A stretch of DNA of 64,000 nt from a virus (IMGVR_UViG_3300044645_001738:1-64000), one strand, 5' to 3'; positions 2,737-29,345 are shown, counted from the stretch's first letter. Notes: generated by a model not told the origin, from the sequence alone. Made by a program: numbers and translations.

Positions 2737-3186
2737 ATGGAAGCACTTAGCCAACTCGACGTTCAAGCCCCTGATCACGTCAGTGTAATTACAAGGGAAG
2801 GCAAGGTCACTATCTCCGTCGTTAAAGACGGAACATCAGTGACTCTTGGATTCCCCATCAAAACTACAGGGCTTGATACAACCCCCAGACCCCCGCTTCA
2901 GCAACCAGCACCAAAGGTAATGGCTGTTAAGACCCAGCATTCCACTGCAGTGCAGCTGGAAACATCTTATCTTTCCTTGAAAAGTAAACACTCTCCCGTT
3001 GGCAACTGTAAGTTGACACCGCAGCAGGTACGTCAAATCAAACTGATACTGACGGATGAACGGTTCATGAAAGCATTTGGTTCTAGGCAACAAGCTTATG
3101 AAGCAATTGCTGTTAAGTTCAACGTCAGTTACCACACAATCTCCAACATCCACAAAGGACTTGCTTGGAGGAACGTAAACATTTAA
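2737..3186 (+). CDS. Protein with C-terminal HTH-like DNA-binding domain
   Basis: KLTPQQVRQIK...IAVKFNVSYHTISNIHKGLAW resembles the HTH tails of phage HNH endonucleases. Confidence 0.6.
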   Translation: MEALSQLDVQAPDHVSVITREGKVTISVVKDGTSVTLGFPIKTTGLDTTPRPPLQQPAPKVMAVKTQHSTAVQLETSYLSLKSKHSPVGNCKLTPQQVRQIKLILTDERFMKAFGSRQQAYEAIAVKFNVSYHTISNIHKGLAWRNVNI

Positions 3187-3213
3187 CTACTCATACCTTG
3201 AGTGGTAACACTC

Positions 3214-5234: not shown

Positions 5235-5666
5235 TCAAGGCCTATACCATTGAGGATTTGATTGTCGATAGTTATAAATTGTTTCTTCTCTTAACTGTTT
5301 TGCAGGTGAAAGAGAAGTTGTAACATCATTTAAATCACTGCCAAGTCCAAAGATTTCTTTGCTTTGCTGAAAACTTTGAGGCTTGGTGCCAAATCTGAAT
5401 CTTGCTTCTATTGATGGATCTTTAATCCCAACATTTAAACCAAAGTTATTACCCATTACACCAAGTTTTCCATTCAAAGGATTCAAGTTAACGCTACCCG
5501 TATCATCTTTGAATTCCATTGATCCACGATTAAGTAATGCGCTAAATACATTGCCTAACTTCTGTGCATCCGTAGGAGCAACTGGATTGTTAAACTGCGT
5601 TGACAACAACGCATCTGTTACTGCAGGACTCCAAGCACCTGCTAAACGTGTGCCAAAATTAGGCAT
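5235..5666 (-). CDS. Counter-oriented AT-rich hypothetical protein
   Basis: ORF from MPNFGTRLAG; upstream motif shared with 4310..4582. Confidence 0.6.
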   Translation of the reverse strand: MPNFGTRLAGAWSPAVTDALLSTQFNNPVAPTDAQKLGNVFSALLNRGSMEFKDDTGSVNLNPLNGKLGVMGNNFGLNVGIKDPSIEARFRFGTKPQSFQQSKEIFGLGSDLNDVTTSLSPAKQLREETIYNYRQSNPQWYRP

Positions 5667-5821
5667 GTGTTTAAACTTGTTTTTACAATAATAAGACAAG
5701 GGTATTGCCAGATAACTACTGGCCTACCCCCCGAACCCCCCGCTGTTCAGTACCAGGGGGGATCCTTAGATATACATACGTTATATCCATTTACTCCCAC
5801 CATTCACTCATCAACTCAACC

Positions 5822-6121
5822 ATGGAACAATCACAGAAGTATCCAACGATTGATTGGACTAAGAACGAATACTACCAAGTGCAACGTGCATTGGAGATCC
5901 TCATGCAGGTCGTTGATCGTGAATCAAAACGTCACGAGATGAATCAACATCTCACACCCAGCATGCTCAGCATGTTGGAAGATGAGATCATCCCAATGCT
6001 TAGTAACGAACTTGACTGTGACGGTGGGCCAAGCGATGACGAAATCTGTGGTGAACCACCGATGACGGCAGACGAAATGCACACTGCTGCATGGCGTCAG
6101 CACCAGGAGCTTCACTCCTAA
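5822..6121 (+). CDS. Hypothetical protein
   Basis: From MEQSQKYP, preceded by CAACTCAACC leader. Confidence 0.65.
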   Translation: MEQSQKYPTIDWTKNEYYQVQRALEILMQVVDRESKRHEMNQHLTPSMLSMLEDEIIPMLSNELDCDGGPSDDEICGEPPMTADEMHTAAWRQHQELHS

Positions 6122-6212
6122 CCAAACATTAAGAGAATCTGTAAGTCTACCTTGGACTAGCCATCCAGGGTAGACTGACCCTGCTTAACTCATTCCGCAA
6201 AACACACATCAG

Positions 6213-6416
6213 ATGTCCGACAAACCACGCATTCCCGACGCACTTGACATGCAACGTCTGCATGTCATGCAGCTTGTTGCCAAGATGAAAGAAGCTGCTG
6301 ATAAACAAGGTGTTCAATTCATCGGGGGTTTCGTCACCCCCGATGGAGAGAAATTTGTAATGACCAATATGGATGAAGATGACCAGCGTATGCTCATGCC
6401 TGAGGAACTCAAGTGA
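6213..6416 (+). CDS. Hypothetical protein
   Basis: 67-aa ATG ORF overlapping next start (GTGA). Confidence 0.65.
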   Translation: MSDKPRIPDALDMQRLHVMQLVAKMKEAADKQGVQFIGGFVTPDGEKFVMTNMDEDDQRMLMPEELK

Positions 6417-6766
6417 CTAATCAACACCCAATCACCCCACCGCCCGAGCTGGTGACGAATTGGTTAAGACATCGCAAACTTCTGGACCCGCAACCGCTTG
6501 CCCACCATTACCTTGCTAGTCGCGCCGCCCAATGGGGCTCAGACCAGGAGCTGGAGGCGTGTATTGAGTGGGTATCCATTCAGTTGAACTGTACCTCCCA
6601 AGAGCATTTAGTTCCACATCTCCGCGCCGCCCGCCGCCCCAAGCCGCCGAGTCTGAAGGAGCAGGCATTCAAGGATCTAGATGAATTGCTCCGTATTGCG
6701 AGACAAGCTGGAGTTTTTAATCCACCTGATAACATCCGCCGCGCACTGGAGGCTTTGCCCGAATGA
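6413..6766 (+). CDS. Mosaic small protein, family A (PITPPPELV / AAQWGxDQELEAC / ARRPKPPSLKEQA / IRRALE)
   Basis: Paralogous conserved blocks shared with 7739..8098 and 15401..15772. Confidence 0.8.
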   Translation: MTNQHPITPPPELVTNWLRHRKLLDPQPLAHHYLASRAAQWGSDQELEACIEWVSIQLNCTSQEHLVPHLRAARRPKPPSLKEQAFKDLDELLRIARQAGVFNPPDNIRRALEALPE

Positions 6767-7155
6767 CTAAACCTTTAACGCACAACAGAGTTGACATCAA
6801 AGTTATTTTGGCTAACCCCTTACTACGGGAAGAGTTAATTGAGGGTGCTACAGATTTTATTTGCAAAGTTGAAGGTATTCGCCGCCGTAAAGAAGATTTG
6901 GAAATGACTAACCTTTCTTCCGCCGCACAGGCGGTGCTGAGTGCCGCTAATGCTTCCGCAACTAATGCGTGGTCTGACGCCACTCACCAACGCTTTAGGT
7001 CTGGTGTAGCCGCCGCCCTGCAAGCTGCTGCTGATCAGGTGGTGCCGGAAACCACAACACCATGGAACTCCACTTTGACTCCAATGATTTCAGCAGGAGA
7101 AGTACGCGCTAAGTTCCTCGCCATCGCCGCCGAGCTGGAGGGTGGCAATGAATGA
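6763..7155 (+). CDS. Mosaic small protein, family B (LSxAAQAVL / AAALxAAADQVVPE / LAIAAELE); family B part starts at ATG 6904
   Basis: Blocks shared with 12797..13063 and 15765..16007. Confidence 0.75.
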   Translation: MTKPLTHNRVDIKVILANPLLREELIEGATDFICKVEGIRRRKEDLEMTNLSSAAQAVLSAANASATNAWSDATHQRFRSGVAAALQAAADQVVPETTTPWNSTLTPMISAGEVRAKFLAIAAELEGGNE

Positions 7156-7306
7156 CCTCGATGACACGCTCACCGCGATTGCCGCAGTAGCAACCCTTCT
7201 GATTATGTTTGCGGTTGCTTGGTGGTGGTTGCCGCAAAAGTGGCAAGCCTGCCAAAAGCTGTATGACAACCGTCCAGCCCAAGTATTCTGCTTTGGAGTT
7301 AAATGA
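7148..7306 (+). CDS. Small membrane protein (52 aa)
   Basis: MNDLDDTLTAIAAVATLLIMFAVAWWWLPQKW..., overlaps both neighbours. Confidence 0.6.
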   Translation: MNDLDDTLTAIAAVATLLIMFAVAWWWLPQKWQACQKLYDNRPAQVFCFGVK

Positions 7307-7746
7307 CTGACACTTTTCGTGCGCTGTGCGCTGAGCTGGCTGATTCCGTAGAGCTGTTGCTTGAAATGCGGAGCAATGATCGACCGATGCGGGTAACAGA
7401 GGATCGCCTTAACCGCGCCCGCGCCGCCCTGGAGGCCCAGCCCGAGCCGCAGGGGCCGAGTGAACTGGAACTAGAGGCCATTGAACTGAAGCTATGGGAC
7501 AAGCACCGAACCAAGGGATATATGGGAGAAGAGTTTATGTATGACAACGACTTCAGCGCTGCCTTGGATGAATACCGCGCTGCCCTGGCCCGATGGGGCC
7601 GCCCCGCCATCGAGCCCGAGCCGCCGAGCTTGAAGGAGCAGGCGCTGGAGGAGCTAACCGAAATCGACTGTCACTACATACCCCCTGGGGCGACCGAACG
7701 CATTGACATTATCCGCCGCGCACTGGAGGCCCTGCCAAATGACTAG
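7303..7746 (+). CDS. Mosaic small protein, family C head fused to family A tail
   Basis: FRALCAEL / RARAALEAQPEPQGPS / LARWGRPAIEP then PPSLKEQAL / IRRALEAL. Confidence 0.8.
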   Translation: MTDTFRALCAELADSVELLLEMRSNDRPMRVTEDRLNRARAALEAQPEPQGPSELELEAIELKLWDKHRTKGYMGEEFMYDNDFSAALDEYRAALARWGRPAIEPEPPSLKEQALEELTEIDCHYIPPGATERIDIIRRALEALPND

Positions 7747-8098
7747 CCCGATCACCCCGCCGCCGGAGCTAGTGCAGCAGTGGGTGGGCGGCGCCTTCCT
7801 ATCAGATGTGCACCACAACGAAGAAGATTTGGCGTACGAACAGTACATCGCTGAACGTGCCGCCCAATGGGGCGCCGACCAGGAACTGGAGGCGTGCTGT
7901 GAGTGGATTAAATCTGAACTCCGAGGACAACTTCGCCCCGCCCATCGAATCGCCATTGAACTCCGCGATGCCCGCCGCCCCAAGCCGCCGAGTCTGAAGG
8001 AGCAGGCGCTTGGCATCCTTGATGTGGCTCACCACGATGTTTTAGAAGATGACCAAATAGCAACTATCCGCCGCGCACTGGAGCAACTCGATGACTAA
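7739..8098 (+). CDS. Mosaic small protein, family A
   Basis: MTSPITPPPELV...AAQWGADQELEAC...IRRALEQLDD. Confidence 0.8.
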   Translation: MTSPITPPPELVQQWVGGAFLSDVHHNEEDLAYEQYIAERAAQWGADQELEACCEWIKSELRGQLRPAHRIAIELRDARRPKPPSLKEQALGILDVAHHDVLEDDQIATIRRALEQLDD

Positions 8099-8291
8099 AA
8101 ACAAATCACCAATTAACTTTGACAAGACAATCGCTGGCTTTAACATAACTGAGCACGGCGTTAAGTCTTATACCAAGTCAATTAAACTTGGTCCGTTCCA
8201 GGTTACACTTAATGCTCGTGGCTCTGGTGTCAGAGGATCTATTAGTATCCCCGGCACAGGCTTGAGCAAACGTAACATCCAACTGTTCTAA
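8091..8291 (+). CDS. DUF4236-like protein
   Basis: KSIKLGPFQVTLN...SISIPGTGLS motif. Confidence 0.6.
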   Translation: MTKNKSPINFDKTIAGFNITEHGVKSYTKSIKLGPFQVTLNARGSGVRGSISIPGTGLSKRNIQLF

Positions 8292-8293
8292 TA

Positions 8294-8328
8294 GCTGGGC
8301 ATCACCACTAGGGTGTGTAAGTCCCAGT
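8294..8328 (+). ncRNA. GTGTAAGTC bulged-hairpin motif, copy 2
   Basis: GCTGGG-CATC-ACC-ACTAG-GGT-GTGTAAGTC-CCAGT. Confidence 0.5.
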
Positions 8329-8524
8329 ACCCACCTCGCTCTCAACTCAACATGGATTCACTCACACTATTTGATCGCATCAATCTTGCAAAGTGTGCAC
8401 AGTTGCGTGCTGAAACCAACGTCCTTAACAACGACGTATTTATGGGAGAGTATTACACTGCACGCATGTGGACTAAGTACCGGTGTTACATCACCAAAAC
8501 TGTTTCATTCGTGGAGTCTGACTG

Positions 8525-8773
8525 ATGTCTGTCCTTGCAATCGAATCAACCGTCATCGATGATGACTATGTCACAGTTGAAGCAATTGTTGATGACATGC
8601 GTTGCATTTATGCAGCGACTTACTCAAGCCCTGCTGAATACGCTCCGGCACTTTGCCGAGCTAGCTTCTTCTTGGGTGATGACACCATCCCTACTGATGA
8701 AGATGGCTTCTGCCGTTATCTTGACGCATGCCAGCTTGAGTGGGAACCCATTGATCTAGGTAACGACGAATGA
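8525..8773 (+). CDS. Hypothetical cyanophage protein
   Basis: VEAIVDDM...PAEYAPALCRASF, acidic, coupled start. Confidence 0.65.
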   Translation: MSVLAIESTVIDDDYVTVEAIVDDMRCIYAATYSSPAEYAPALCRASFFLGDDTIPTDEDGFCRYLDACQLEWEPIDLGNDE

Positions 8774-8947
8774 TTGGATTCTCCATCGAATTTAAACGCT
8801 GGTACATCACAGTGCGTGGTCCCATGGGCAGGGTATATCTCTGCACTGGGTTTGCCAAACGCCTGCCAGTGTTTGTGTCACCGCAACAATCAATTGCATT
8901 TGATGACGACATCACTGATGATGAAGACTATGGTGTAAGGTAACACC

Positions 8948-8975
8948 ACGTCCTGAGCATGACGTTAAACTGCTC
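8948..8975 (+). ncRNA. Repeated pseudoknot element, copy 2
   Basis: ACGTC-CT-GAGCA-T-GACGT-TAAAC-TGCTC. Confidence 0.7.
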
Positions 8976-9000
8976 ATCATTTTAATTCAATTGCACACAC

Positions 9001-9873
9001 ATGGACTTCAAAAGTATTAATGATGCTTTCGATATTGATAAAGTGAGGCACCGCGCTGCCATGCATTATCAAAAGTACAAGTCACCTTCAGGTTACCCAA
9101 ACTGGTTAAAGATACTTGACAAAGTTGATATAGCTCATAACGTAATTCATGAAGTCCAAAAGGAAATTGGTAGCTTTGGATTGACACGAGAGTTATCTCA
9201 AGAAGAGAATGCTGCCTTGGTTGTTACAGGCGCTATTGCATCATTGTCTCCACCCATTTGCGTACATGAAAACATAATAGAAGCGCTTGCAAATACAGAT
9301 GTTAAGCCAATGGAAACACCTGAATATGCATTGCCGTTCTTTATATTTCTTTTGCCAAAAGATTTCAAGTTTACAACTAAACTACCTGACTACCAAGGTT
9401 TTGATTTAAATTTTTATGTAGCATTTGCTGCATGTATTCCTGACTGTGTGAAAGTAACTTACATAAGTGAAACTACTGTTTGTTATGGTTCATACCAATG
9501 GACTGAAATCATTACAGAAAAAGATGGAGCCAAAGAAGAAGATTACATCCTGGAAAAGTTCATGAAAAATTTGATACTTATGTATATGTATGAGCCCAAG
9601 TATTTGACAGAGGAAACCATCAAGCTACCCACAAAAGGCAAAGGCTTTGGTTCTAGTGAAAAAGATAAGCCATTCCAAATGCGTTGGCTAGGTAAAAACT
9701 ATAAGCAAGTACGACAAACAGTTGTATGCAAAGACAATATTGTTGATCCAGATAACAAACGATCTGTCCGAGCACATTGGCGTCGTGGACATTGGCACAC
9801 AGTATGCCATGGTCCCAAACACAAACAACGCAAGCAACAGTGGTTTAAACCTGTGTTTGTTAATCAGGATTAA
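9001..9873 (+). CDS. Hypothetical phage protein with C-terminal HWRRGHW motif
   Basis: 290 aa, VRAHWRRGHWH...WFKPVFVN; flanked by identical 34-bp repeats. Confidence 0.75.
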   Translation: MDFKSINDAFDIDKVRHRAAMHYQKYKSPSGYPNWLKILDKVDIAHNVIHEVQKEIGSFGLTRELSQEENAALVVTGAIASLSPPICVHENIIEALANTDVKPMETPEYALPFFIFLLPKDFKFTTKLPDYQGFDLNFYVAFAACIPDCVKVTYISETTVCYGSYQWTEIITEKDGAKEEDYILEKFMKNLILMYMYEPKYLTEETIKLPTKGKGFGSSEKDKPFQMRWLGKNYKQVRQTVVCKDNIVDPDNKRSVRAHWRRGHWHTVCHGPKHKQRKQQWFKPVFVNQD

Positions 9874-9877
9874 CACC

Positions 9878-9905
9878 ACGTCCTGAGCATGACGTTAAAC
9901 TGCTT
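9878..9905 (+). ncRNA. Repeated pseudoknot element, copy 3
   Basis: ACGTC-CT-GAGCA-T-GACGT-TAAAC-TGCTT. Confidence 0.7.
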
Positions 9906-9933
9906 ACATTACGAACTTAACTCTGAACTCACC

Positions 9934-11673
9934 ATGGAATTTCGTCTTCCGACCAACCTTCAGAACGAACTTATCCCTTACGATCCAACGCTCAAGAAGT
10001 TGGCACGTACTGAGAAGCAAGGCAAGGCAGGTACCAAGAAATCTAAATATCCACTTGGCAATCCACCACGGTTGATGCCATTGGATGTCGTAAGAGAATC
10101 ACTGCAGCAAGAAGCAATTGATGTTATCAATAGAGTAACTGCTTGTGATAGGCACCATGAATTCAAGTTGCCTGTCGGTAACATCCCCAACGTAGAGTAC
10201 GTTGTCCATGCAGTGATGTACCACTACGAAGGCGTATGGGTAGCAGCATGGCTGCCACCTAAAGGCAAGGAGAATGACTATGTATATGGTTACACTTACT
10301 GCTTTAAGGACACAGCCGCTACTCGTAAGATGCTGGATTGCCAGGTTAAAAATAACCTGGAAAAATACACCGTATCAGAAATTGGTCGTTCTGTTTATTA
10401 CTACAGAACTGAACTGGTTACCAAGCAAAACATCATTGATGGTAATGATCGTCCTTGCTGGATGTATAGCTACGTTGGTGGCTACGCCCAAAAATCTAAG
10501 AACATTGCATCAATGCTTGGACGCTTTAGGGATGCACTTAAGAAAACAATTCCAACCTGGTCAGACGGTCGCGGTATCTTTGATCGCATCAAAACTTCTC
10601 GTACCCTATACAGCTTGCTTAGTGAAGATCGTGATTTGGATAGTACCTATTGGATCAAATACAAAAAAGATTTTAAGCAGACTAAACAACAATGGTCTGC
10701 ATCAGTTGCGTCTTTGTTCCACCTAATTGATTACCATGTAAATGTCTCTCGCTATAATCCGTTTAGCGAATTTGTACGCGTTCGTCATATACTTGATAAA
10801 CCATTCTTCCGCAAGTGGATCCAAGATAAATGTAATGAGATCAATACAAAGTACCAAGATGAATCAGTAGACACTATGGCTACAATCCGCAGGCCTTGGT
10901 TGTTAATCAAAGAGTTTGTTAAGGGTATTCATTATGTCCATTCAATCTGGGGTGATGCAGTTCCATTGGATTACTACCAGTCAAACATTGATAACTTAAT
11001 GGGCGTTAAAACCTGGAGCCCTGTACCAACAATTGTTCTTCCATGGCTAACTGAACATATGCCAGTTGCTTCATTCTTTCAAATGCGTAGCAAATACTAC
11101 CTGGAACAGAAGGCTGCTCCACAACGTAGTTATGACTATGAAGAAAGGCTTGGTATGTCTCAGTACCGATTCCGTGAATGGGAAGATACATGCAGCATGC
11201 TTAATCAAATCCTCAATAATGACAAAACAATTGATCCGCCAAAGCGTTGGCGTATCACTGAACTCCATGACCATGTGCAAGCAGAAGCATGGAAGATCCA
11301 GAATCCCAATCACAAACTTCCACAAGATCTATTCCCTGCACCAATCAAGGTGCAGCACGCTGATCAGAACTGGTCATTCTTCCAGCCATTTGACACTCAT
11401 CAATTGGCACAGTGGGGCCAAGCCGTACGTAACTGCGTAGGTAATGCCAGCAGTTATGCCGAAGGTGTACGCAAGAAACAACACTTTATTGTGTTGTGTA
11501 TGGTCGATGGTGCACCACGCTTTACCATCCAACTTGAAGTCAACATGGGACTCATGAGTGTCAAACAGATTGTTGGAATGCACAACTCCAGGCTGACGGA
11601 GGCAGACCGTGATCTGTACTCAGCAGCTTTCCGTCAGGCCTTGCAATCCCGCGAGGAACAGCTTAAGATCTGA
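9934..11673 (+). CDS. PcfJ-like domain protein
   Basis: C-terminal ELHDH...LAQWGQAVRNCVG..Y...RFTIQL...QIVGMHN pattern. Confidence 0.7.
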   Translation: MEFRLPTNLQNELIPYDPTLKKLARTEKQGKAGTKKSKYPLGNPPRLMPLDVVRESLQQEAIDVINRVTACDRHHEFKLPVGNIPNVEYVVHAVMYHYEGVWVAAWLPPKGKENDYVYGYTYCFKDTAATRKMLDCQVKNNLEKYTVSEIGRSVYYYRTELVTKQNIIDGNDRPCWMYSYVGGYAQKSKNIASMLGRFRDALKKTIPTWSDGRGIFDRIKTSRTLYSLLSEDRDLDSTYWIKYKKDFKQTKQQWSASVASLFHLIDYHVNVSRYNPFSEFVRVRHILDKPFFRKWIQDKCNEINTKYQDESVDTMATIRRPWLLIKEFVKGIHYVHSIWGDAVPLDYYQSNIDNLMGVKTWSPVPTIVLPWLTEHMPVASFFQMRSKYYLEQKAAPQRSYDYEERLGMSQYRFREWEDTCSMLNQILNNDKTIDPPKRWRITELHDHVQAEAWKIQNPNHKLPQDLFPAPIKVQHADQNWSFFQPFDTHQLAQWGQAVRNCVGNASSYAEGVRKKQHFIVLCMVDGAPRFTIQLEVNMGLMSVKQIVGMHNSRLTEADRDLYSAAFRQALQSREEQLKI

Positions 11674-11892
11674 TTGCTGAAGCCACAGCAGGGCCATCGT
11701 ATTCTCGTTATAGGTGGCCCTTTCTCTAATGCCTGATTACACTGACGATCAACTACTTGCCATGGCAATGGCAAACCTTGGTGAATACATCCATGACAAC
11801 TCACCACATTACATTCTGATTGAAGAAGATCCTCGCAATGAGGATGACTACGACACGTGGAGTTATGGTACTGAGCCATTACCACGTGATCA

Positions 11893-11936
11893 CACTTGGC
11901 AGCACACATCAGTTGATGTGAGTGTAAGTCCAAGTG
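11893..11936 (+). ncRNA. GTGTAAGTC bulged-hairpin motif, copy 3 (abuts tRNA)
   Basis: CACTTGG-CAGCAC-ACATC-AGTT-GATGT-GA-GTGTAAGT-CCAAGTG. Confidence 0.5.
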
Positions 11937-11938
11937 AT

Positions 11939-12024
11939 GGGGACATGGCGGAATAGGTAGACGCAACGGACTTAAAATCCGTAGGCCATTGGCTGTGAGA
12001 GTTCAAGTCTCTCTGTCCCTACCA
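11939..12024 (+). tRNA. trnL: tRNA-Leu(TAA)
   Basis: GGGGACA/TGTCCCT acceptor, ACGGA-CTTAAAA-TCCGT anticodon arm, long variable arm, GAGAG-TTCAAGT-CTCTC T-arm, encoded ACCA. Confidence 0.95.
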
Positions 12025-12046
12025 ACAAACACACCAGCTCAACACC

Positions 12047-12409
12047 ATGTCAATCTTTGCTTGCTTTAAGTACATCATCCCTGAGTTTCATGCATTCAGT
12101 GATGACGACAATCGTTACAACCTTGGTGCAACATGGACTGCACAAGATGGACTCAAGGATTATCACAACCTTGAACTAAGGTATGTCCATAACTCAGAGC
12201 GGCTTGCGCTCCAGGGGGATCCACAGCCTGATGGATCATGGCGTTACGTGGAAGCCAATGGCTCTGTTCATACCATATCACCTGAACGTGCCAAGCATTT
12301 CATGGAGCAGACTCATCAGCATGCCACGATCATGTGTGCCATGCTCGACAAGCTTAAAGAGTCAGGGGTTATGAACGAACCACTGGACACCCAAGCCAGC
12401 CCAGCTTAA
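12047..12409 (+). CDS. Hypothetical protein
   Basis: 120-aa ATG ORF with C/A-rich leader. Confidence 0.65.
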   Translation: MSIFACFKYIIPEFHAFSDDDNRYNLGATWTAQDGLKDYHNLELRYVHNSERLALQGDPQPDGSWRYVEANGSVHTISPERAKHFMEQTHQHATIMCAMLDKLKESGVMNEPLDTQASPA

Positions 12410-12459
12410 ACTCAGTACCTACTCACTACCCTCCGTTACTAACAGCGGAGGGTTTACTC

Positions 12460-12804
12460 ATGGACACACAACTTTCAAATGATTACATTGACCTTGACCT
12501 TGTTGACAAGGTGCTTGCATTAGTACCAGAGCAGGCATGGTCTTTAGTATTGACCGCTATTGTTAGCGGCATTGTTGATGAGATGCCATCGACTGTGCTC
12601 CAGGAATTGACTGGAGATGTAGAGGGGTTTGATCGTGCCGAAGAAATCTTAAATTCGTATTACAGTGGCATAGATCAACGTCATGCTTTAATCCAAGATG
12701 CATTCAAACTTATTGGCACAGAAAATACATTGCATCTTTTGGATGCAATGCAATTAAACAAGTATGTTGAATCTCTCGAACTTAACACTGAAACCAATGA
12801 CTGA
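12460..12804 (+). CDS. Hypothetical protein
   Basis: 114-aa ORF coupled to family B gene. Confidence 0.65.
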   Translation: MDTQLSNDYIDLDLVDKVLALVPEQAWSLVLTAIVSGIVDEMPSTVLQELTGDVEGFDRAEEILNSYYSGIDQRHALIQDAFKLIGTENTLHLLDAMQLNKYVESLELNTETND

Positions 12805-13063
12805 ACCTCTCTCCCCCGCCGCCAGGGCGGTGCTGGATGCCTTCACCGAGGACCATTTTCTCCACGACTGGAAGCACAACCACTACAACACTGACGCTCT
12901 CGCCGCCGCCCTCCGCGCCGCTGCTGATCAGGTGGTGCCGGAGCCTCCGATGATCGTTGAAGGTGGTCGCACTTATGAGGAAGCGTGGACCGCCACCGTC
13001 CATGGCGACATTCGCCGCCAATTCCTTGCCATCGCCGCCGAGCTGGAGGCCCTCAATGACTGA
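12797..13063 (+). CDS. Mosaic small protein, family B
   Basis: MTEPLSPAARAVL...AAALRAAADQVVPE...FLAIAAELE. Confidence 0.8.
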   Translation: MTEPLSPAARAVLDAFTEDHFLHDWKHNHYNTDALAAALRAAADQVVPEPPMIVEGGRTYEEAWTATVHGDIRRQFLAIAAELEALND

Positions 13064-13553
13064 CTTTCGTGCGCTGTGCGCTGAGCTGTTGAGCGAAATA
13101 CAGGCTTTGCGGCGAGCAGTGGCCGATGAAGTGGGGTGTTCATCACCCGAGCCTTCGGTCATCACCCGCGCCCGCGCCGCACTGGCCCAGCCCGAGCCGC
13201 AGGGGCCGAGTGATGAGGAGCTGTTGCGCATCTACCGAGTAGCAAGATATTGTTACCAAGTCGAAGAGTACAAAAGAGAGTTGGACTTCGCCCGCGCCGT
13301 CTTAGCCCGCTGGGGCCGCCCCGCCATCGAGCCGGTGCCTAAGCAGGAGGACATTCACTACGCCTGGGAACTGCATGATGCCGAGGGTGAGTGGCAGGCT
13401 GGTGGGTCAGCCAACAGCTTGGAGGATGTTCAACGAGAAGGCAATCGCTACCTGCAGACCTACTCGCAAGATGGCCCCCACAAGTTGATCATTGAGCGGC
13501 ACTGCGTAACAACCATCGAGCCGGTGCCTGGGGTGGAGGGTGCCGATGGCTGA
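13056..13553 (+). CDS. Mosaic small protein, family C, with in-frame insert
   Basis: MTDFRALCAEL...RARAALAQPEPQGPS...LARWGRPAIEPVP...IEPVP. Confidence 0.8.
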   Translation: MTDFRALCAELLSEIQALRRAVADEVGCSSPEPSVITRARAALAQPEPQGPSDEELLRIYRVARYCYQVEEYKRELDFARAVLARWGRPAIEPVPKQEDIHYAWELHDAEGEWQAGGSANSLEDVQREGNRYLQTYSQDGPHKLIIERHCVTTIEPVPGVEGADG

Positions 13554-13658
13554 CGCCCTGCTCACCCTCGCCCTGCTGCTCGCCCTCGGCGCAGCGGTTG
13601 AACTAAGTGTGAAAGTAATCTTTGTTAAGTTACTACCGCTGTTACTTAGGTTGCATTA

Positions 13659-14006
13659 ATGAAGTGTCGTCAATGTAATAGCAAGAACACACGTGTTACT
13701 TGCACTGATCACTTTGATACATTCACTAAGCGTTACTGCCGATGTCTTGATTGCAATTTAAAGTTTCGAACTGTTGAATACTATGAAGAACGTAAGCCCG
13801 GTCCCCCGCCTGGCACACCAAGAACACGTAACATAACGCGTGGTGAGTCCCATGGTTGTGCAGTGTTTCAAGAGAAGGACATCCGTATGATGCGCACTCT
13901 CTACCAACAAGGCACAACCTTGGTATCCATCGCAATTAAATACGGGACAAGTTCTTCTTACGTGTCACGCATTGTCAACCACAAATCATGGAGCCACATT
14001 AAATGA
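13659..14006 (+). CDS. NrdR-like Zn-ribbon plus C-terminal HTH protein
   Basis: MKCRQC..NTRV......RYCRCLDCNLKFRTVE; C-terminal IAIKYGTSSSYVSRIV. Confidence 0.65.
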   Translation: MKCRQCNSKNTRVTCTDHFDTFTKRYCRCLDCNLKFRTVEYYEERKPGPPPGTPRTRNITRGESHGCAVFQEKDIRMMRTLYQQGTTLVSIAIKYGTSSSYVSRIVNHKSWSHIK

Positions 14007-14299
14007 CCAGTGCCAAGTACGACTTCAACATTGGTGATCGTGTTGCCGAACGTCCCAAGTCACATGGGTTGTTTGCTGTAAGTAAAGAAGCTGAGGAGAT
14101 TGTTAAACGTAATAGGTCTCAAAGGTATGGCACTATCGTTGGCTATGACACACAGCTAAACAAAAGTGGTAAGCGCATGAACATGTTGCTTGTGCAATGG
14201 GATCACCTCAAGTCCCCAATGAAACATGCAAGGTGTAGGATCTGTCCCATTGATCAGCTTGCTACATTGACAAAACAAATCATTGTGCCTGGGGAATGA
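14003..14299 (+). CDS. Hypothetical protein (SH3-like FNIGDRV start)
   Basis: ATGA-coupled on both sides. Confidence 0.65.
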   Translation: MTSAKYDFNIGDRVAERPKSHGLFAVSKEAEEIVKRNRSQRYGTIVGYDTQLNKSGKRMNMLLVQWDHLKSPMKHARCRICPIDQLATLTKQIIVPGE

Positions 14300-14952
14300 C
14301 CATGAACGTATCACTTGTTTGGGTCACGCCTCAAGCCGAAGAGTTGATCACACGCATGGCTCGGGTGTCAGCTCCAAAGAACCAAGGGAATATGGATACA
14401 GCACCTAAGTTGTTGCGCTATTTAATTACGCACCAACATTGGAGTCCATATGAAATGGCTAACATGTGTGTTGAAATCAACACAACACGTGCAATATCTG
14501 CACAGATTATTCGCCATCGTTCGTTTAGCTTTCAAGAATTCAGTCAGCGCTACGCTGATATCAATGAGCTTGGCTCAGCTGTTATCCCACACCTGCGTCG
14601 TCAAGACCACAGCAACAGACAAAATAGTATCGATGACTTGACATCGGAAGATGTTGCCAACTTCTATCGGCGCATCAGTCAACTCTTTGAGGATACTGAG
14701 CATCTCTATCGTGAGATGGTAAGTCAGGGCATTGCCAAAGAGTGCGCCAGGAACATCTTGCCGATGGGTACGCAGACTAAGATTTACATGAACGGTTCGC
14801 TCCGTTCGTGGATACATTACCTGCAGCTAAGAACTTCCAATGGAACCCAAGCAGAACACAAACAAATCGCAGAAGAAATCAAACGAATCTTCTGCGCACA
14901 ATTCCCAGTCATTGGAGAAGCTGTGTTCTCAGGAGATCCAGGGATTACCTGA
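14296..14952 (+). CDS. thyX: Flavin-dependent thymidylate synthase
   Basis: HWSPYE, QIIRHRSFSFQEFSQRY ThyX motif, KECARNILP. Confidence 0.97.
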   Translation: MTMNVSLVWVTPQAEELITRMARVSAPKNQGNMDTAPKLLRYLITHQHWSPYEMANMCVEINTTRAISAQIIRHRSFSFQEFSQRYADINELGSAVIPHLRRQDHSNRQNSIDDLTSEDVANFYRRISQLFEDTEHLYREMVSQGIAKECARNILPMGTQTKIYMNGSLRSWIHYLQLRTSNGTQAEHKQIAEEIKRIFCAQFPVIGEAVFSGDPGIT

Positions 14953-15167
14953 AGATTCTTTTGGTCAGCCTGTTGAATCAGACAACAACTTCAGCAGGTT
15001 GTTTTTTTAATTCTTTGATGGCACGTTTGGACTCTACATCCTTGCGTGTTTGTTTTTTCTTTTGGTTTGCCAGGTACACAAGCAGTGCTTGATCCATTAT
15101 TCTGTATCTGTTGTTACTGAAGTTTACTTCAATTGATGCACACCATGTTGTTCACTGTGTAACACAA

Positions 15168-15404
15168 ATGACACCAAACAAATACCAACGCAACGCACGT
15201 TTTAATTATTTGGCAAAGTATGATCACTTTGCTAAACCAGATGACTTCATTGAAGTAACCGAATGGTACAACGGTGAAGGCTTTGATGTACACCTCAGCA
15301 CCAGCGCTGGTGAACAGCGTATGTCATTTAGCTGGGGTGAGTACCAAGCATTGAAAGCAACTCTTGGTGACTGGGCTGAAAACAATCTGGAGGATGAAGA
15401 ATGA
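15168..15404 (+). CDS. Hypothetical protein
   Basis: From MTPNKYQR; FIEVTEWYNGEGFDV motif. Confidence 0.6.
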   Translation: MTPNKYQRNARFNYLAKYDHFAKPDDFIEVTEWYNGEGFDVHLSTSAGEQRMSFSWGEYQALKATLGDWAENNLEDEE

Positions 15405-15772
15405 CTAATCAAATTAATGGTGACAAGTTATTTGTCATTAATCCACACCCTGCCATCCCACCTTCTGATCAACTAAAGAAGTGGGAAGACAAATGGTTCG
15501 ATGAAGAAGAACATCCTGATGTTCTGTTAATCCAGGCGTTTCAAGCAGGCGCCGACCAGGAGCTGGAGGCGTGTGTGGAGTGGCTTGGTGATGCTCCTGT
15601 TGTATGGGACAACAATGGCGATCTTCATCCAGGTTCATATTTAAGAGATGCCCGTCGCCCTAAACCAAACTTGAAGGAGCAGGCGCTAACGGCATTGCTG
15701 CACCTTGACCAAGGACAACATAACGAGCGCTGCTTGATCATCCGCCGCGCCCTGGAGCAACTCGATGACTGA
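15401..15772 (+). CDS. Mosaic small protein, family A (variant N-terminus)
   Basis: GADQELEAC...LRDARRPKPNLKEQAL...IRRALEQLDD. Confidence 0.8.
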   Translation: MTNQINGDKLFVINPHPAIPPSDQLKKWEDKWFDEEEHPDVLLIQAFQAGADQELEACVEWLGDAPVVWDNNGDLHPGSYLRDARRPKPNLKEQALTALLHLDQGQHNERCLIIRRALEQLDD

Positions 15773-16007
15773 ACTTCTCTCCCCCGCCGCACAGGCGGTG
15801 CTGAGTGCCGCTAATGCTTTCGCAACTAATGCGTGGTCTGACGCCACTCACCAACGTTTTAGGTTTGGTGTAGCCGCTGCCCTGCGAGCTGCTGCGGATC
15901 AAAAAAGCGAGTCCGTCTGCACTGAAGAACACGGCAAAATTTCCGTCATTTTTACTGGCGACATCCTTTCTCTCGCCGCCGAGCTGGAGGGTGTGACCTC
16001 ACGGTGA
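15765..16007 (+). CDS. Mosaic small protein, family B
   Basis: MTELLSPAAQAVL...AAALRAAADQ...LAAELEG. Confidence 0.8.
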   Translation: MTELLSPAAQAVLSAANAFATNAWSDATHQRFRFGVAAALRAAADQKSESVCTEEHGKISVIFTGDILSLAAELEGVTSR

Positions 16008-16106
16008 TCAAGCCGCAAGGTCATTCGCTTGCTAGCCAGGGGAAGCAGCAGAAACCCTGACTCCCTCGGGGTTGACGCTGCTCTGCTACACCCCATATAA
16101 TCATAC

Positions 16107-16133
16107 ACGTCCTAAGCATGACGTTAAACTGCT
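16107..16133 (+). ncRNA. Repeated pseudoknot element, copy 4
   Basis: ACGTC-CT-AAGCA-T-GACGT-TAAAC-TGCT. Confidence 0.7.
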
Positions 16134-16154
16134 AGTCAACTCAACTCAACTACC

Positions 16155-16922
16155 ATGAAACTTCTCAAGTTTTCTACCGGCAACGGCAAGCTCAAGAATC
16201 GTTTGATCTTCTCGCTGCCAGCGGGATACGCCTGCCCTCACGCAGGTGTGTGTAAGACCATGGCCGATCGTGCCACTGGTTCCATCATTGATCTACCACA
16301 ACACAATGGCACAACAGCAGATGAGTTCCGCTGCTTTGCTGCCATGGCAGAAGTTAGGCCAAACGTACGGGAGGCACGCTGGCACAACTGGGATCTGTTG
16401 CGTGGTGTTATGTATGGCAATGGAAACCAAGCGTTGTTGTTGCGTGATCTAATTGACATGTCGCTCAGTATGCAACCACCAAAAGAACTGGTGCGTGTCC
16501 ACGAGTCAGGAGATTTCTGGACTGAGAACTATCTCAAGGCATGGCTGATGGTTGCCAAGCAACGCCCTAAGCAAAAGTTCTATGCCTATACCAAGTCTCT
16601 TGGGATGTGGTACAACCTTAAAGATCTGATACCATCCAACTTTTATCTCACCGCATCTTACGGTGGTACGTTGGATTACATGCTGCCCAAGTATCCAGAC
16701 GTTTACACACGCATTGCGTATGTGGTGTACACGGAAGAGGAAGCAGCAGAGCGTGGACTTGAGATCGATCACGACGATAGCCACTGCCTTGGTGATAAGC
16801 CATTCGCACTCTTGGTTCATGGGTCCCAGAGGGCTGGTACTCCTGCATCCCAAGCGTTGTCTCAACGCAAGAAGGATGGGAAGTTTGTTGGGTACGGTAA
16901 ATCAATGCAGAAGATATCCTGA
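16155..16922 (+). CDS. Gp88-like protein (Cys-containing, radical-SAM-like fold family)
   Basis: GNGKL, FSLPAGYACP..GVC, CFA, VRVHESGDF, FYAYTKS motifs. Confidence 0.75.
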   Translation: MKLLKFSTGNGKLKNRLIFSLPAGYACPHAGVCKTMADRATGSIIDLPQHNGTTADEFRCFAAMAEVRPNVREARWHNWDLLRGVMYGNGNQALLLRDLIDMSLSMQPPKELVRVHESGDFWTENYLKAWLMVAKQRPKQKFYAYTKSLGMWYNLKDLIPSNFYLTASYGGTLDYMLPKYPDVYTRIAYVVYTEEEAAERGLEIDHDDSHCLGDKPFALLVHGSQRAGTPASQALSQRKKDGKFVGYGKSMQKIS

Positions 16923-16978
16923 ATATCTTGCATTGACAAATAGGTCTGATAACATCTGACAGTTATCTTCTTGTTCAG

Positions 16979-17212
16979 ATGAGCTACGTCATTGTCTCTT
17001 GGAAATCAGGAGCACCGCATGCGGTACATGCATGCAACAAAACTAACTCTTTTCAGTTGGTTCCATTAGACTCTGACGTAGCTCTTACCAAAATTTTTTC
17101 GCATCCGTATCGTGCGGGTGCGCAACAAATTTTAAATTGGATTAACAAGAATGATGACCAGCTCGCCCGTCAAGAACTCGACGTTTACGATGAAGCCCAG
17201 TTCCGCAAGTGA
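16979..17212 (+). CDS. Hypothetical protein
   Basis: 77-aa ATG ORF upstream of polymerase. Confidence 0.55.
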   Translation: MSYVIVSWKSGAPHAVHACNKTNSFQLVPLDSDVALTKIFSHPYRAGAQQILNWINKNDDQLARQELDVYDEAQFRK

Positions 17213-19016: not shown

Positions 19017-19180
19017 TTACCATGGACCCTCAAGTTGATTACGAGCTTCTGGCTAAAGACTTGTACTTGGCTGCTGATCATTTCTTTTGTTCAATGTTTG
19101 ATAGTTCTTGCTGGAACGACGAAGAATTAAACAGCAAGTACATAACAGTTCTTGGAGAAGCTCGCAGGGTATTTGGTTCC

Positions 19181-19207
19181 ACGTCCCAAGCATGACGCTA
19201 AACTGCT
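19181..19207 (+). ncRNA. Repeated pseudoknot element, copy 5
   Basis: ACGTC-CC-AAGCA-T-GACGC-TAAAC-TGCT. Confidence 0.65.
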
Positions 19208-20321: not shown

Positions 20322-21362
20322 ATGACCCAACTTCCGTCTTTGAAGGACATCAACACAATGGCTACGAAGAAAACTTCTGCTCTTGCTACACGCGGTCTGG
20401 AATCTTTTAAGATGTTCCAGTCCAAAGAATTTGTATCGGGTTACCAGAACCTGGTCACTATCCAACCACTGAACAAGTCCAAGACTCGTGGTTGGTTTGT
20501 GCGTAAGTCTGACCTTGACACCTGCGGTTGGACCGCAACTGAAGATCAGTTTGCCAAAGGTTCAGTCATCTGGAACTACAAGCAAACCTTTGGCATGGCT
20601 CCCAACACTTCAATTGAAGAAGGGTTGAACTTCATTGAGCCTCGCCTTCAAGTGCTGTTGCGTTCTCCCCTGATGGTTGAAGAAACTTCTGGGATGCGCC
20701 AGGTGATTGGTTCGTTTGACAATCCGAATGTCAAAGAACTGTTTGAGGCTGACAAGATTGCATCTGATCTTGCCAACAGCAAAGGTGAAATGTACAAGCG
20801 CAGGTACAGCGTGCGTACCAAATACCTGGTGTATGTGCTGACCCAGGACAACAAGCGTGCCCATAAGATCCCTATGATGCTGACGCTGAAAGGCTTGAAT
20901 GGTACTGACGTTTCTGAGAAGATCCGTCTGTATGAAAAGGAAATGTCTAAGTGCTTGAGCAAAGCACTGGACTCTGAGGTGCCTCTGGCATTCAATGAAA
21001 AGTTCTATGCCACTACGGTGTTCTGCCCTGTGCTGGCAAATGAAATGCGCGGTGCCAACAACGTTGAGATCTGCGCCATTGAATCCTTTGACATTCCTGA
21101 TTACAGCTCCCAGGAAGATGCAGTCGAATCTTTGAATCGTCTGTCAATTCCTGATGAAGATCGGGAATCAACCTGGAAGTATCAAGAGATGTTCCAGGAC
21201 TACATCAACGTCCATGCCAAACAGGACTCAGACAAACTCGGTGGTGCCTATGGCATTAAGGAAGGTGTTGAGATTCTGCCTGTGTCCCGCACCATGGATC
21301 CAGTAGATGTCAAAGCCCTGCCTTCTCGCGATGAGTTGACAGGGGAAGACTCTTCACTTTGA
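20322..21362 (+). CDS. Hypothetical protein in replication module (possibly DUF5895-like)
   Basis: Long ORF with biased codon usage; AHKIPMMLTLKG motif. Confidence 0.7.
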   Translation: MTQLPSLKDINTMATKKTSALATRGLESFKMFQSKEFVSGYQNLVTIQPLNKSKTRGWFVRKSDLDTCGWTATEDQFAKGSVIWNYKQTFGMAPNTSIEEGLNFIEPRLQVLLRSPLMVEETSGMRQVIGSFDNPNVKELFEADKIASDLANSKGEMYKRRYSVRTKYLVYVLTQDNKRAHKIPMMLTLKGLNGTDVSEKIRLYEKEMSKCLSKALDSEVPLAFNEKFYATTVFCPVLANEMRGANNVEICAIESFDIPDYSSQEDAVESLNRLSIPDEDRESTWKYQEMFQDYINVHAKQDSDKLGGAYGIKEGVEILPVSRTMDPVDVKALPSRDELTGEDSSL

Positions 21363-21894: not shown

Positions 21895-22866
21895 ATGTCT
21901 AACTCAACCCTCAACTCAACCATGACTACTCGAACTGTTCTTGAACTCAACGCTGCACAAGCCAGCATTTACACTCGTACTAACATCCGTCGTGCTTACC
22001 AGGATTTTGATGACTCCGAGATTGCTGGCATTGGTGTGCGAGGCGACAATTGTATTGTTGTGCGTCGCGATGGTAGTGAGCAGACTTATGACAGGCAGTT
22101 GATTAAGACTGCGTTTAGCTCCTATACTCACCGTCTAAAAGATTTCTTCTCGTACCTTGGCCCTCATTACCGTGGCCCTAGTGTATGGCGTAACAATGCT
22201 TACGTATTGTTTAAAGGATGGACCTACACTCACGCCCTTGGACACACAACATCCCATGCAAAACTCCAAGCCCACTGGGCAGACAAGTTTATACACTTAT
22301 CAGATGCCGTTAAACTCACCACGTTGCTTCAGTCTGACCAAACGGACCTGGGCCATTTGGTGGCGCCAGACGGATTTCGGTTTTCGAATCGGCCGTTTGA
22401 TATGGACTCTGAGTTGGACAACGACAAAGAACAACAGCAGGTGCTTAATGAACCTAGTTGCTCGTGTGGGTCGTTTCAACGTCAGCTCAACAACCTATCT
22501 GCTTTCCAAGAAGAGATCCAGGGATTTAAACCGTGGTGTATTCACCTGACTTGGTTTCAGAAATACAGGGAACTGCTTTGCAAACGTACTGAGATTCGCA
22601 ATGCTGCACATAGTGGTGTGTCTGACAAGTGCGTGGCTTGGTGGTACGCACCTCCTGTTGACTCCAACAATGATGGACGTTTCGTATTGCTTCACACCAA
22701 GTCAGGTGCGCAAGCACCGCTTAGCCACTGGCGTACCTACAAACCACAAGAGGTCCTGACACAGAACGATGCATGGGACCTGTTCTTCAATATGATGGAG
22801 GCGGGTTACATTCCATTCCCTGGAATTTCACTCCCACAACTCAAGGAGGCCGTCAAGAAATCATGA
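21895..22866 (+). CDS. SWIM zinc-finger domain protein
   Basis: CSCGSF...PWCIHL. Confidence 0.7.
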   Translation: MSNSTLNSTMTTRTVLELNAAQASIYTRTNIRRAYQDFDDSEIAGIGVRGDNCIVVRRDGSEQTYDRQLIKTAFSSYTHRLKDFFSYLGPHYRGPSVWRNNAYVLFKGWTYTHALGHTTSHAKLQAHWADKFIHLSDAVKLTTLLQSDQTDLGHLVAPDGFRFSNRPFDMDSELDNDKEQQQVLNEPSCSCGSFQRQLNNLSAFQEEIQGFKPWCIHLTWFQKYRELLCKRTEIRNAAHSGVSDKCVAWWYAPPVDSNNDGRFVLLHTKSGAQAPLSHWRTYKPQEVLTQNDAWDLFFNMMEAGYIPFPGISLPQLKEAVKKS

Positions 22867-29273: not shown

Positions 29274-29345
29274 AGGGTCGTGCCGGAATCGAACCGACTT
29301 TCAATGTGTGTTGTCCACCTGTCCTTACCAATAGACTAACGACCC
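29274..29345 (-). tRNA. tRNA-like gene with aberrant anticodon arm (isotype undetermined)
   Basis: GGGTCGT/ACGACCC acceptor, GTCT-ATTGGTAA-GGAC D-arm, GTCGG-TTCGATT-CCGGC T-arm; anticodon region GGTGGACAACACACATT pairs poorly and lacks U33. Confidence 0.75.

Follow-up and report, generated by a model that had tools for sequence, protein, structure and literature searches.

Small virus-only protein families of a probable lake picocyanophage form module mosaics with crossovers in conserved connector boxes

The DNA stretch IMGVR_UViG_3300044645_001738:1-64000 (hereafter the window; 64,000 nucleotides) is the first 64 kb of an 83,977-bp IMG/VR virus record rated complete by CheckV, and between positions 6413 and 16007 it carries eight small open reading frames (ORFs) that fall into three families, termed A, B and C. 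A first-pass annotation made from the sequence had described these ORFs as conserved boxes alternating with unrelated variable (V) segments, and all eight are found on the plus strand. The three families are virus-only, and their genes are mosaics, as evident by V segments that are shared singly between genes, with crossover positions inside the boxes. Synonymous sites in the boxes are unsaturated, the V segments are under purifying selection, and the gene arrays turn over between related phage backbones. Homologous recombination at short conserved connectors is the likeliest mechanism. We consider it probable, leaving aside what the proteins might bind, that each protein is a string of interchangeable V modules joined by conserved Pro/Ala/Arg-rich connector boxes, and that the genes occupy same-strand arrays with overlapping stop and start codons inside a replication and nucleotide-metabolism region. 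The box DNA (~30-60 nucleotides (nt), rich in guanine and cytosine (GC) and seemingly conserved beyond the requirements of the protein) would permit homologous recombination to cross over inside the boxes, both between co-infecting phages and between paralogs of one genome, such that single modules, whole genes and even parts of different families could be swapped; exchange of all three kinds is evident in the sequences. Phage single-strand-annealing systems and host RecA would be the candidate enzymes.

Family A genes carry four boxes that enclose segments V1, V2 and V3. A first protein alignment revealed discrete segment types in differing combinations. For example, homolog P0040 combines V1 of the window gene A3, V2 of the window gene A2 and V3 of homolog P0007, and the V3 segment of P0086 is that of the window gene C1. 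Class assignments were made for 110 of 120 listed A proteins (the other 10 were unparsed or longer than 150 amino acids (aa)), yielding at least 26 V1, 53 V2 and 55 V3 classes. The identities of V2 and V3 in this set are bimodal, and sharing a V1 class does not predict sharing of V2 (0.03 versus a baseline of 0.030).

The DNA-level analysis covers 108 unique full-length A genes from 93 sources, aligned with hmmalign to a hidden Markov model (HMM) and compared in 5,778 pairs. Median nt identity of V segments is 0.43-0.46, with a small tail at 0.8 or above. When sharing is defined as at least 80% nt identity in a segment while other segments fall below 60%, V1 alone is shared by 105 pairs, V2 alone by 47 and V3 alone by 48, compared to six pairs for V1 plus V2, none for V2 plus V3 or for V1 plus V3, and three for all segments. 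Exactly one V segment is therefore common to 200 of the 209 sharing pairs. Because all three single-segment-only classes are present, no clonal history with unequal rates fits these data. In each of these classes, per-codon identity is ~0.9 over the shared segment and returns to background inside the boxes, with the drops located in box2 (HMM positions ~47-50), in box3 (~78-83) and at the ends of box1 and box4.

Families B and C, for which only full-length genes were used, exhibit the same pattern. The 54 B genes include 10 pairs with one segment in common and none with both; the corresponding numbers for the 19 C genes are eight and one. Two cultured phages also take part. V2 of gp065 from phage S-CBS2 is 100% identical to V2 of P0412, with V1 and V3 unrelated, and V3 of SWVG_00042 from phage S-RIP1 is 82-88% identical to V3 of P0021, P0081 and P0016, which differ from SWVG_00042 and from one another in V1 and V2. 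The first-pass annotation had proposed that the boxes are crossover sites between which segments reassort, and had advised a search of homologs for mosaicism bounded by boxes. Both the single-segment sharing and the termination of shared identity within boxes bear this proposal out.

The DNA boxes quoted in that annotation are present, and a repeat search agrees with them. A match of 47 nt at 96% links 6620 and 7961 (A1 and A2), which share up to 38 consecutive identical nt in box3; copies of the ATCCGCCGCGCACTGGAG box lie at 6734, 7711, 8066 and 15740; and 6913-7037 in B1 matches B3 over 125 nt at 93%. The description of the boxes as near-identical thus holds for some pairs, but not generally, since median box nt identity over the 5,778 gene pairs is 0.75-0.80. 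The boxes are indeed richer in GC than the genome: GC content in the window is 0.58-0.68 for boxes, 0.45-0.50 for V segments and 0.47 overall. Across loci, with segment borders that were set after the conservation profile had been seen, GC and third-position GC (GC3) are 0.653 and 0.750 for boxes and 0.512 and 0.522 for V segments, while the rest of the loci have a GC content of 0.535. Given a GC3 of 0.75 in boxes versus 0.52 in V segments, the GC excess does not arise from amino-acid composition alone. Box GC correlates weakly with backbone GC (r 0.24-0.32, over a backbone range of 0.43-0.66). Gene junctions of the ATGACTGA type are also conserved.

Synonymous positions in the boxes are likewise conserved. 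Codons for the same amino acid are identical at a frequency of 0.691 (253,716 comparisons), versus 0.476 if pooled box usage is taken as the expectation and 0.340 if V-segment usage is, and identity at four-fold sites is 0.665 versus 0.33 expected by composition (Jukes-Cantor (JC) distance 0.44). Position-specific codon usage, determined for the 65 of 108 unique genes that were parsed by a strict regular expression (43 were dropped), is equally pronounced. One box alanine is encoded by GCG in 61 of 64 genes, although GCG accounts for 8% of alanine codons in V segments, and the peptide PKPPSL is encoded as CCC-AAG-CCG-CCG-AGC-TTG in >85% of genes, whereas six codons are in use for the leucine immediately after box3. 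Between classes, by comparison, V segments have nt identities of 0.43-0.46 versus 0.40-0.43 for shuffled sequences. Ordinary divergence had been expected to leave saturated synonymous sites in the boxes and V segments that follow the tree of the boxes; instead, box synonymous sites are not saturated and the V segments lack a single tree. Had the V segments decayed neutrally for as long as the box synonymous sites record, about two-thirds identity would remain, and therefore the V classes must be far older than box coalescence or else non-homologous. The synonymous conservation and GC content of boxes might be explained by repeated exchange that homogenizes them (with GC-biased repair as a possible contributor), by selection on cassettes for the ability to recombine, or by a cis-acting role.

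The view that V segments are freely varying loops did not survive the analysis, because they form discrete module classes under purifying selection. Within classes, pN/pS (the ratio of nonsynonymous to synonymous differences per site) is 0.11-0.16 with pS of 0.27-0.41, as calculated from 105, 45 and 51 pairs of equal length and 80% to under 100% identity that are not independent of one another; the boxes have a pN/pS of about 0.33. Reading frames are intact in all 108 unique full-length A genes. From these sequence comparisons, V segments are conserved functional peptide modules rather than hypermutating loops or junk spacers.

Turnover of the arrays is evident on related backbones. The locus L022 and the window are 95.5% identical along a 245-nt stretch that stops 12 nt inside the A gene at 15401; past this point, the match is confined to two short pieces of box. 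Precisely where the window has the pair A3-B3, L022 carries a different A-B pair, whose A gene has a V1 of the window-A2 class and V2 and V3 of other classes. The syntenic relatives L060, L053/L057 and L013, compared with window positions 8500-17000, carry arrays at other intergenic sites on the same backbone. Shared genes of these relatives, including L022, are about 68-97% identical at the nt level.

Family A corresponds to phrog_32006 (PHROGs v4), an entry that names no function and makes no mention of mosaicism. A1, A2 and A3 match it with E values of 2.1e-30, 6.5e-28 and 1e-19, respectively, over positions 2-114 of 116, and no PHROG was matched by B or C at E ≤ 0.01. Database searches returned at least 8,000 hits for A, 1,807 from 5,165 candidates for B and 706 from 2,921 candidates for C. 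Named hits are nearly all ‘hypothetical’, with the exception of the family B hit P0133, which its source labels as a transporter. When 1.84 billion representatives were searched with the A profile, 2,487 clusters at 50% identity were obtained (E ≤ 0.001), with listed members of 104-281 aa that include tandem two-unit and three-unit forms. A pattern search of IMG/VR confirmed at least 542 loci (542 of 599 among the matches listed). In contrast to this abundance in viral data, 185,579 species genomes yielded only 12 loci, all on contigs of metagenome-assembled genomes from mixed phyla, which we interpret as phage DNA binned in error. Clusters in the Atlas are 94-100% viral. Of the cultured phages searched, only the Synechococcus phages S-CBS2, S-H1 and S-RIP1 carry family A, and none carries B or C. 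The A gene of S-CBS2 and S-RIP1 lies amid genes for single-stranded DNA-binding protein (SSB), endonuclease, annealing protein and primase. The cyanophage types that carry A are unrelated (a siphovirus, a T7-like podovirus and the 84-kb phage studied here).

When HMMs for all three families were applied to every open frame of the 93 DNA sources, 291 hits were obtained, all on one strand. Counted within the fetched flanks, 68 sources have B and 31 have C. The adjacencies in the arrays are A>B 46, A>A 32, A>C 20, C>B 19, B>B 17, B>A 13, B>C 10, C>C 6 and C>A 3. These sources also hold partial units (e.g. A 1-56, A 78-118, B 1-44) and six in-frame cross-family fusions. Profile comparisons of A-B, A-C and B-C with hhalign gave probabilities of 1.9-2.6%, and a common origin of the families is therefore not supported. 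Recurrent neighbors are genes for dCTP deaminase (24 loci), ThyX (16), polA (14), a PD-(D/E)XK nuclease (12 of the 93 sources) and a RecT-like protein (8 of 93). Literature searches, which did not extend to supplementary files, returned no description of the families and no paper containing any of four box peptides.

A number of observations weigh against recombination at the boxes as we describe it. V2 and V3 sharing is weakly linked among the 110 A proteins (0.13 versus a baseline of 0.026). In a separate comparison at 70% aa identity, V1 and V2 are co-shared in 11 pairs versus 1.7 expected. Sampling is biased toward relatives of A2, given that the loci analyzed are the best 80 of 542 and the protein hits are the best 120 per query, both ranked by A2 similarity. 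A median box identity of 0.75-0.80 and exact runs with a median longest length of 11-17 nt (90th percentile 18-32 nt) are short for RecA-type recombination, and the synonymous conservation of boxes could reflect a nucleic-acid function instead. A RecT search of the genome gave no match, and no recombinase was identified in the phage. A module of SSB, an exonuclease and the ORF at 20322 had been suggested as a recombinase. The identity of SSB (ORF start 19230) is confirmed, but ORF 20283-21362 matches DUF5895 only and has no relative in PDB, and neither it nor ORF 21895-22866 has an informative match in Pfam, PHROGs or PDB. Functional searches with the eight proteins were similarly unproductive: Pfam gave sub-threshold noise and nothing above cut-off, PADLOC assigned no family to any of the eight, PDB sequence searches with the A profile, the B profile and C2 found nothing, and Foldseek searches (A2 against PDB and BFVD, B2 against PDB) returned only uncharacterized phage proteins or E > 1. 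Finally, the data derive mostly from short-read metagenome assemblies, in which shared boxes could give chimeric joins; k=31-based Logan contigs end at boxes (6649, 8067, 6443 and 12912); and the within-population segment swaps that the first-pass annotation had hoped to see by mapping left no clean evidence among Logan contigs in the phage’s own population.

Box-to-box ‘joints’ in contigs were considered as swaps of this kind and rejected, being best read as other family members. Boxes are common to many co-occurring Logan contigs.

One alternative is that cassette exchange is programmed, with box DNA serving as a cis-acting site for a phage nuclease or recombinase or being selected for recombinability. 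Such a system would accommodate the position-specific box codons (0.691 versus 0.476) that persist across backbones of 43-66% GC, the weak tracking of backbone GC by the boxes, the conserved ATGACTGA-type junctions, and the small Zn-ribbon/HTH and HNH/AP2-type genes that adjoin arrays in the window, in L013 and at about 10 loci. However, no enzyme is consistently linked to the arrays, whose neighbors are generic replication genes, and crossover points are spread over several codons per box rather than confined to one site. Moreover, frequent homologous exchange alone can homogenize flanking sequences. We judge programmed exchange to be quite improbable. No dedicated machinery for module exchange was found, and the dedicated ‘diversity generator’ of the first-pass annotation asks for more than the data require, which is nothing beyond ordinary homologous recombination at conserved sequence.

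Another alternative holds that the genes are selfish or near-neutral ‘moron-like’ passengers, which play no role in infection and persist by hopping on conserved flanks. Copy number, order and position of the arrays do vary between related backbones, and the fragments and in-frame fusions noted above are common. Yet passengers of this type are difficult to reconcile with strong purifying selection on both modules and boxes, with the uninterrupted frames of every full-length A gene, or with stop/start overlaps that suggest coupled translation, and this alternative strikes us as very improbable.

An assembly artefact, whereby short-read assemblers switch between family members at shared boxes and generate false mosaics, deserves mention due to the contig ends described above and to the depth of lake-metagenome coverage over box bins, which is 5-20x the phage baseline (201.7 versus ~9 in X1). 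However, the exact runs within boxes are short, and large assembly k-mers and read lengths exceed them. Furthermore, in 199 of the 200 single-segment pairs the two genes come from different assemblies, and 90 of the 108 genes are involved; the clonal isolates S-CBS2 and S-RIP1 show one-segment sharing too; particular combinations recur (P0001 on 17 contigs, P0010 on 21, P0020 on 17 and P0086 on 13); and 15 of 123 A genes are identical between loci. An artefactual origin of the mosaics is thus hard to credit. Ordinary paralog divergence, with protein-selected motifs as boxes, fast-evolving spacers as V segments and no recombination, is close to untenable: although amino-acid conservation is highest in the boxes and Pro/Ala/Arg/Gly-rich motifs are GC-rich by composition alone, this account is contradicted by the 105, 47 and 48 single-segment-only pairs that are impossible under a clonal order with unequal rates, by the box JC distance of 0.44 alongside different-class V segments at random identity, by the within-class purifying selection that neutral spacers would lack, and by the GC3 difference between boxes and V segments.

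Recombination at the connectors, which we favor over these alternatives, has partial precedents. The account of T-even gp38 adhesins in Trojet et al. (2011, PMC3157838, citing Tetart et al.) describes conserved glycine-rich motifs that bound hypervariable segments, and proposes that the motifs form a structural core and mediate segment shuffling. As in that description, short conserved motifs alternate with variable segments in A, B and C, and exchange occurs between motifs; the gp38 adhesins are the closest known principle. The differences are substantial, however. The connectors studied here are Pro/Ala/Arg-rich rather than Gly-rich, the structural models are all-helical with no relation in sequence or fold, and searches of Pfam and PHROGs with the eight proteins matched no adhesin. 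The arrays lie in a replication module, whereas gp38 lies at the tail-fiber locus, and gp38 acts in receptor binding, whereas searches with A, B and C found no named function. Most distinctive are the three co-clustered families in multi-copy arrays, with exchange that crosses family borders to join a C head to an A tail. The logic of recombination at conserved connectors is shared with gp38, and its extension over three arrayed families sets A, B and C apart.

PeSLs, the intergenic promoter/stem-loop cassettes that move whole ORFs in hyperplastic regions of T4-type phages (Arbiol et al., 2010, PMC2839356; Comeau et al., 2014, PMC4122927), are similar as portrayed there in that short conserved DNA lets small accessory ORFs swap among related phages, with content that differs between close relatives. 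In A, B and C, by contrast, the exchange sites are coding, lying in genes and at overlapping stop/start junctions, and parts of proteins are swapped. Relaxed homologous recombination by phage annealing recombinases, which produces mosaics (De Paepe et al., 2014, PMC3945230; Neamah et al., 2017, PMC5499656), offers a plausible route for crossovers in short imperfect homology and may apply to these families, although the genome studied here differs in that no RecT match was found.

Like the arrays, diversity-generating retroelements are phage-borne and diversify defined protein parts on a kept scaffold. These retroelements make adenine-directed point changes copied from a template repeat, whereas the variation in A, B and C consists of discrete unalignable classes under purifying selection. 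A retroelement was considered and rejected for this region. No reverse transcriptase match (RVT_1, PF00078) was found in the 83,977-bp record, in agreement with the first-pass annotation, while control genomes did match. There is no pair of template and variable repeats, the repeats of the region being the boxes themselves, and V segments of different classes are at shuffled identity, which implies that no template-like near-copy exists.

AlphaFold2 models are consistent with the helical scaffold that had been proposed. The A2 model has five predicted helices (predicted local distance difference test (pLDDT) score 78, predicted template modeling (pTM) score 0.51), with turns in V1, V2, V3 and the RRPKPPS loop of box3, and the B2 model has three (pLDDT 76, pTM 0.64); each V segment is predicted to span an inter-helix turn. 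Free reassortment implies that modules do not depend on one another for folding. All three families are acidic (median isoelectric point 4.6-4.8, net charge -7 to -13). ESM Atlas searches returned unnamed viral clusters only, and a prediction of an A plus B complex gave a score of 0.00 with no model, which counts neither for nor against binding. The location of the genes in a replication or early module, the coupling of small acidic proteins, their virus-only range, the many module classes and the fast turnover would fit an accessory role that involves variable host factors. It is possible, though doubtful and no better than a guess, that the proteins bind such factors in anti-defense or host takeover, with module class matched to target variant.

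All features of the arrays lie on the plus strand. In the first array, ATGA or GTGA overlaps link seven ORFs (6213-8291) into a chain whose family genes start with (A/G)TGACT, as had been stated; such stop/start overlaps suggest coupled translation. The chain opens with a 67-aa ORF (6213-6416) outside the named families, whose TGA stop overlaps the GTG start of A1. The latter gene (6413-6766; family A, phrog_32006) has boxes at 6416-6463, 6512-6571, 6620-6670 and 6734-6763, and segments V1 (6464-6511), V2 (6572-6619) and V3 (6671-6733). B1 (6763-7155) shows homology to family B from 6904, where the B unit begins at an internal ATGACT, and is preceded by an in-frame N-terminal extension of 47 aa (6763-6903); its boxes are at 6904-6951, 7006-7053 and 7102-7149. 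A mini-ORF of 52 aa (7148-7306) with a hydrophobic, Trp-rich stretch is ATGA-chained between B1 and C1 and belongs to none of the three families. C1 (7303-7746) is a cross-family hybrid, in which a family C head (boxes 7303-7341, 7402-7476 and 7561-7608) is joined at PPSLKEQAL to an A-type box3-V3-box4 tail (about 7606-7740) that matches phrog_32006 positions 72-114. A2 (family A, 7739-8098) starts at an ATG inside a listed TTG ORF (7703-8098) and has boxes at 7739-7783, 7847-7906, 7961-8011 and 8066-8095, with V1 at 7784-7846, V2 at 7907-7960 and V3 at 8012-8065. A 66-aa ORF (8091-8291), likewise outside the named families, closes the chain with an ATGACT start that overlaps the end of A2.

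The second array consists of B2 (12797-13063; family B, boxes 12797-12847, 12899-12946 and 13010-13057) and C2 (13059-13553; family C, boxes 13053-13091, 13155-13226 and 13278-13325), which has its own C-terminal tail resembling that of P0317. The third comprises A3 (15401-15772; family A with a longer N-terminus, boxes 15446-15484, 15524-15583, 15641-15688 and 15740-15769), whose V1 class is seen again in P0040 and P0041, and B3 (15765-16007). The N-terminal half of B3 matches positions 1-44 of the B HMM and has the same V1 class as B1, and its divergent C-terminal half retains only an AAELEG-like box. A search of the whole 83,977-bp record found no further copies. Silent-cassette antigenic variation of the pilE/pilS or vlsE type pairs a single expressed locus with partial donor cassettes that lack promoters; all copies in the window are complete ORFs with start codons in overlapping chains, and partial units (A 1-56, B 1-44) occur at other loci. 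The phage is present in 21 DNA runs. A few RNA contigs, from three RNA runs and with small shares, fall on 6210-6441 and 13182-13321; these were not counted as proof of transcription.

Some homologs are longer than the window copies. Family A proteins P0062, P0074, P0093, P0360 and P0367 contain two or three whole units in tandem (up to 281 aa), and family C proteins P0246, P0248, P0252 and P0329 contain duplicated internal box-module units; tandem in-frame units fit with unequal crossing-over at boxes. Many family C homologs have an extra Cys/Trp-rich C-terminal module ending in an ALPVPGVEGAD-like box. This module is absent from C1, which has the A-type tail instead, and C2 has a different tail that ends in the same type of box. 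Antisense ORFs of 103-149 aa lie over the GC-rich arrays on the minus strand (7299-7610, 7654-8016 and 12782-13231), and similar frames cluster across loci; these are probably compositional artefacts.

The genome encodes ThyX, a family A DNA polymerase, SSB, HNH endonucleases and two tRNA-Leu genes, with the polymerase, SSB, ThyX and HNH genes near the arrays. A tRNA was the sole match of an Rfam scan. The tRNA-Leu genes lie at 11939-12024 (plus strand) and 29274-29345 (minus strand), and their anticodons are TAA and CAA. A tRNA-Leu of Synechococcus phages B3 and B23 shares 88.6% identity with the first, whose bin (11767-12117) has very high summed contig depth in lake metagenomes. The source is probably a lake picocyanophage, and the eight ORFs are probably real genes expressed early or in the middle of infection.

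Other features of the surroundings were also recorded. A 28-nt motif occurs four times on the plus strand with 0-3 mismatches (8947-8974, 9877-9904, 16106-16133 and 19180-19207; chance expectation 0), just upstream of or overlapping the ORF starts 9001, 9889, 16155 and 19230 (SSB). This motif is a candidate phage promoter or regulatory box, and its copies do not bracket the arrays. Within 5500-17000 there is no excess of promoter-like sites (12 versus 15.0 in shuffles) or terminator-like sites (11 versus 9.8). The plus-strand ORF 9889-11673 (594 aa) has a PcfJ-like C-terminal domain (Pfam E = 4.5e-06), and the 3′ end of this ORF shares 97.3% identity with the beginning of L013. Immediately downstream of the B2-C2 array, 13659-14006 (plus strand) encodes a small protein that combines an NrdR-like zinc ribbon with a weak match to HTH_7 (phrog_20467, which is annotated as ‘HNH endonuclease’). 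Its L013 counterpart (~2904-3193), which is 89.7% identical at the nt level, lies downstream of an A-B-C-C array.

With 2,487 clusters for family A alone, these genes are among the larger uncharacterized virus-only gene sets seen here, and they recur in many lake metagenomes. They display recombination at sub-gene resolution, as evident by modules of ~15-20 codons and crossovers that can be mapped to within a few codons, even across unrelated families. The arrays thus provide a tractable natural system for learning how little homology phage recombination needs and whether coding sequence is selectable for recombinability. A bolder proposal, which we consider unlikely, is that the arrays form a natural combinatorial library, with connector DNA kept by selection for recombinability or by a box-directed enzyme and modules re-dealt among co-infecting cyanophages. 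If true, this library would be a recombination-based counterpart of diversity-generating retroelements that needs no reverse transcriptase and is aimed at variable host factors, such as defense systems. Picocyanobacteria are globally important primary producers, and the arrays may also help to reveal which variable host targets drive such diversity in these organisms. If the proteins prove to be anti-defense factors, the catalog of modules would serve as a map of host defense diversity.

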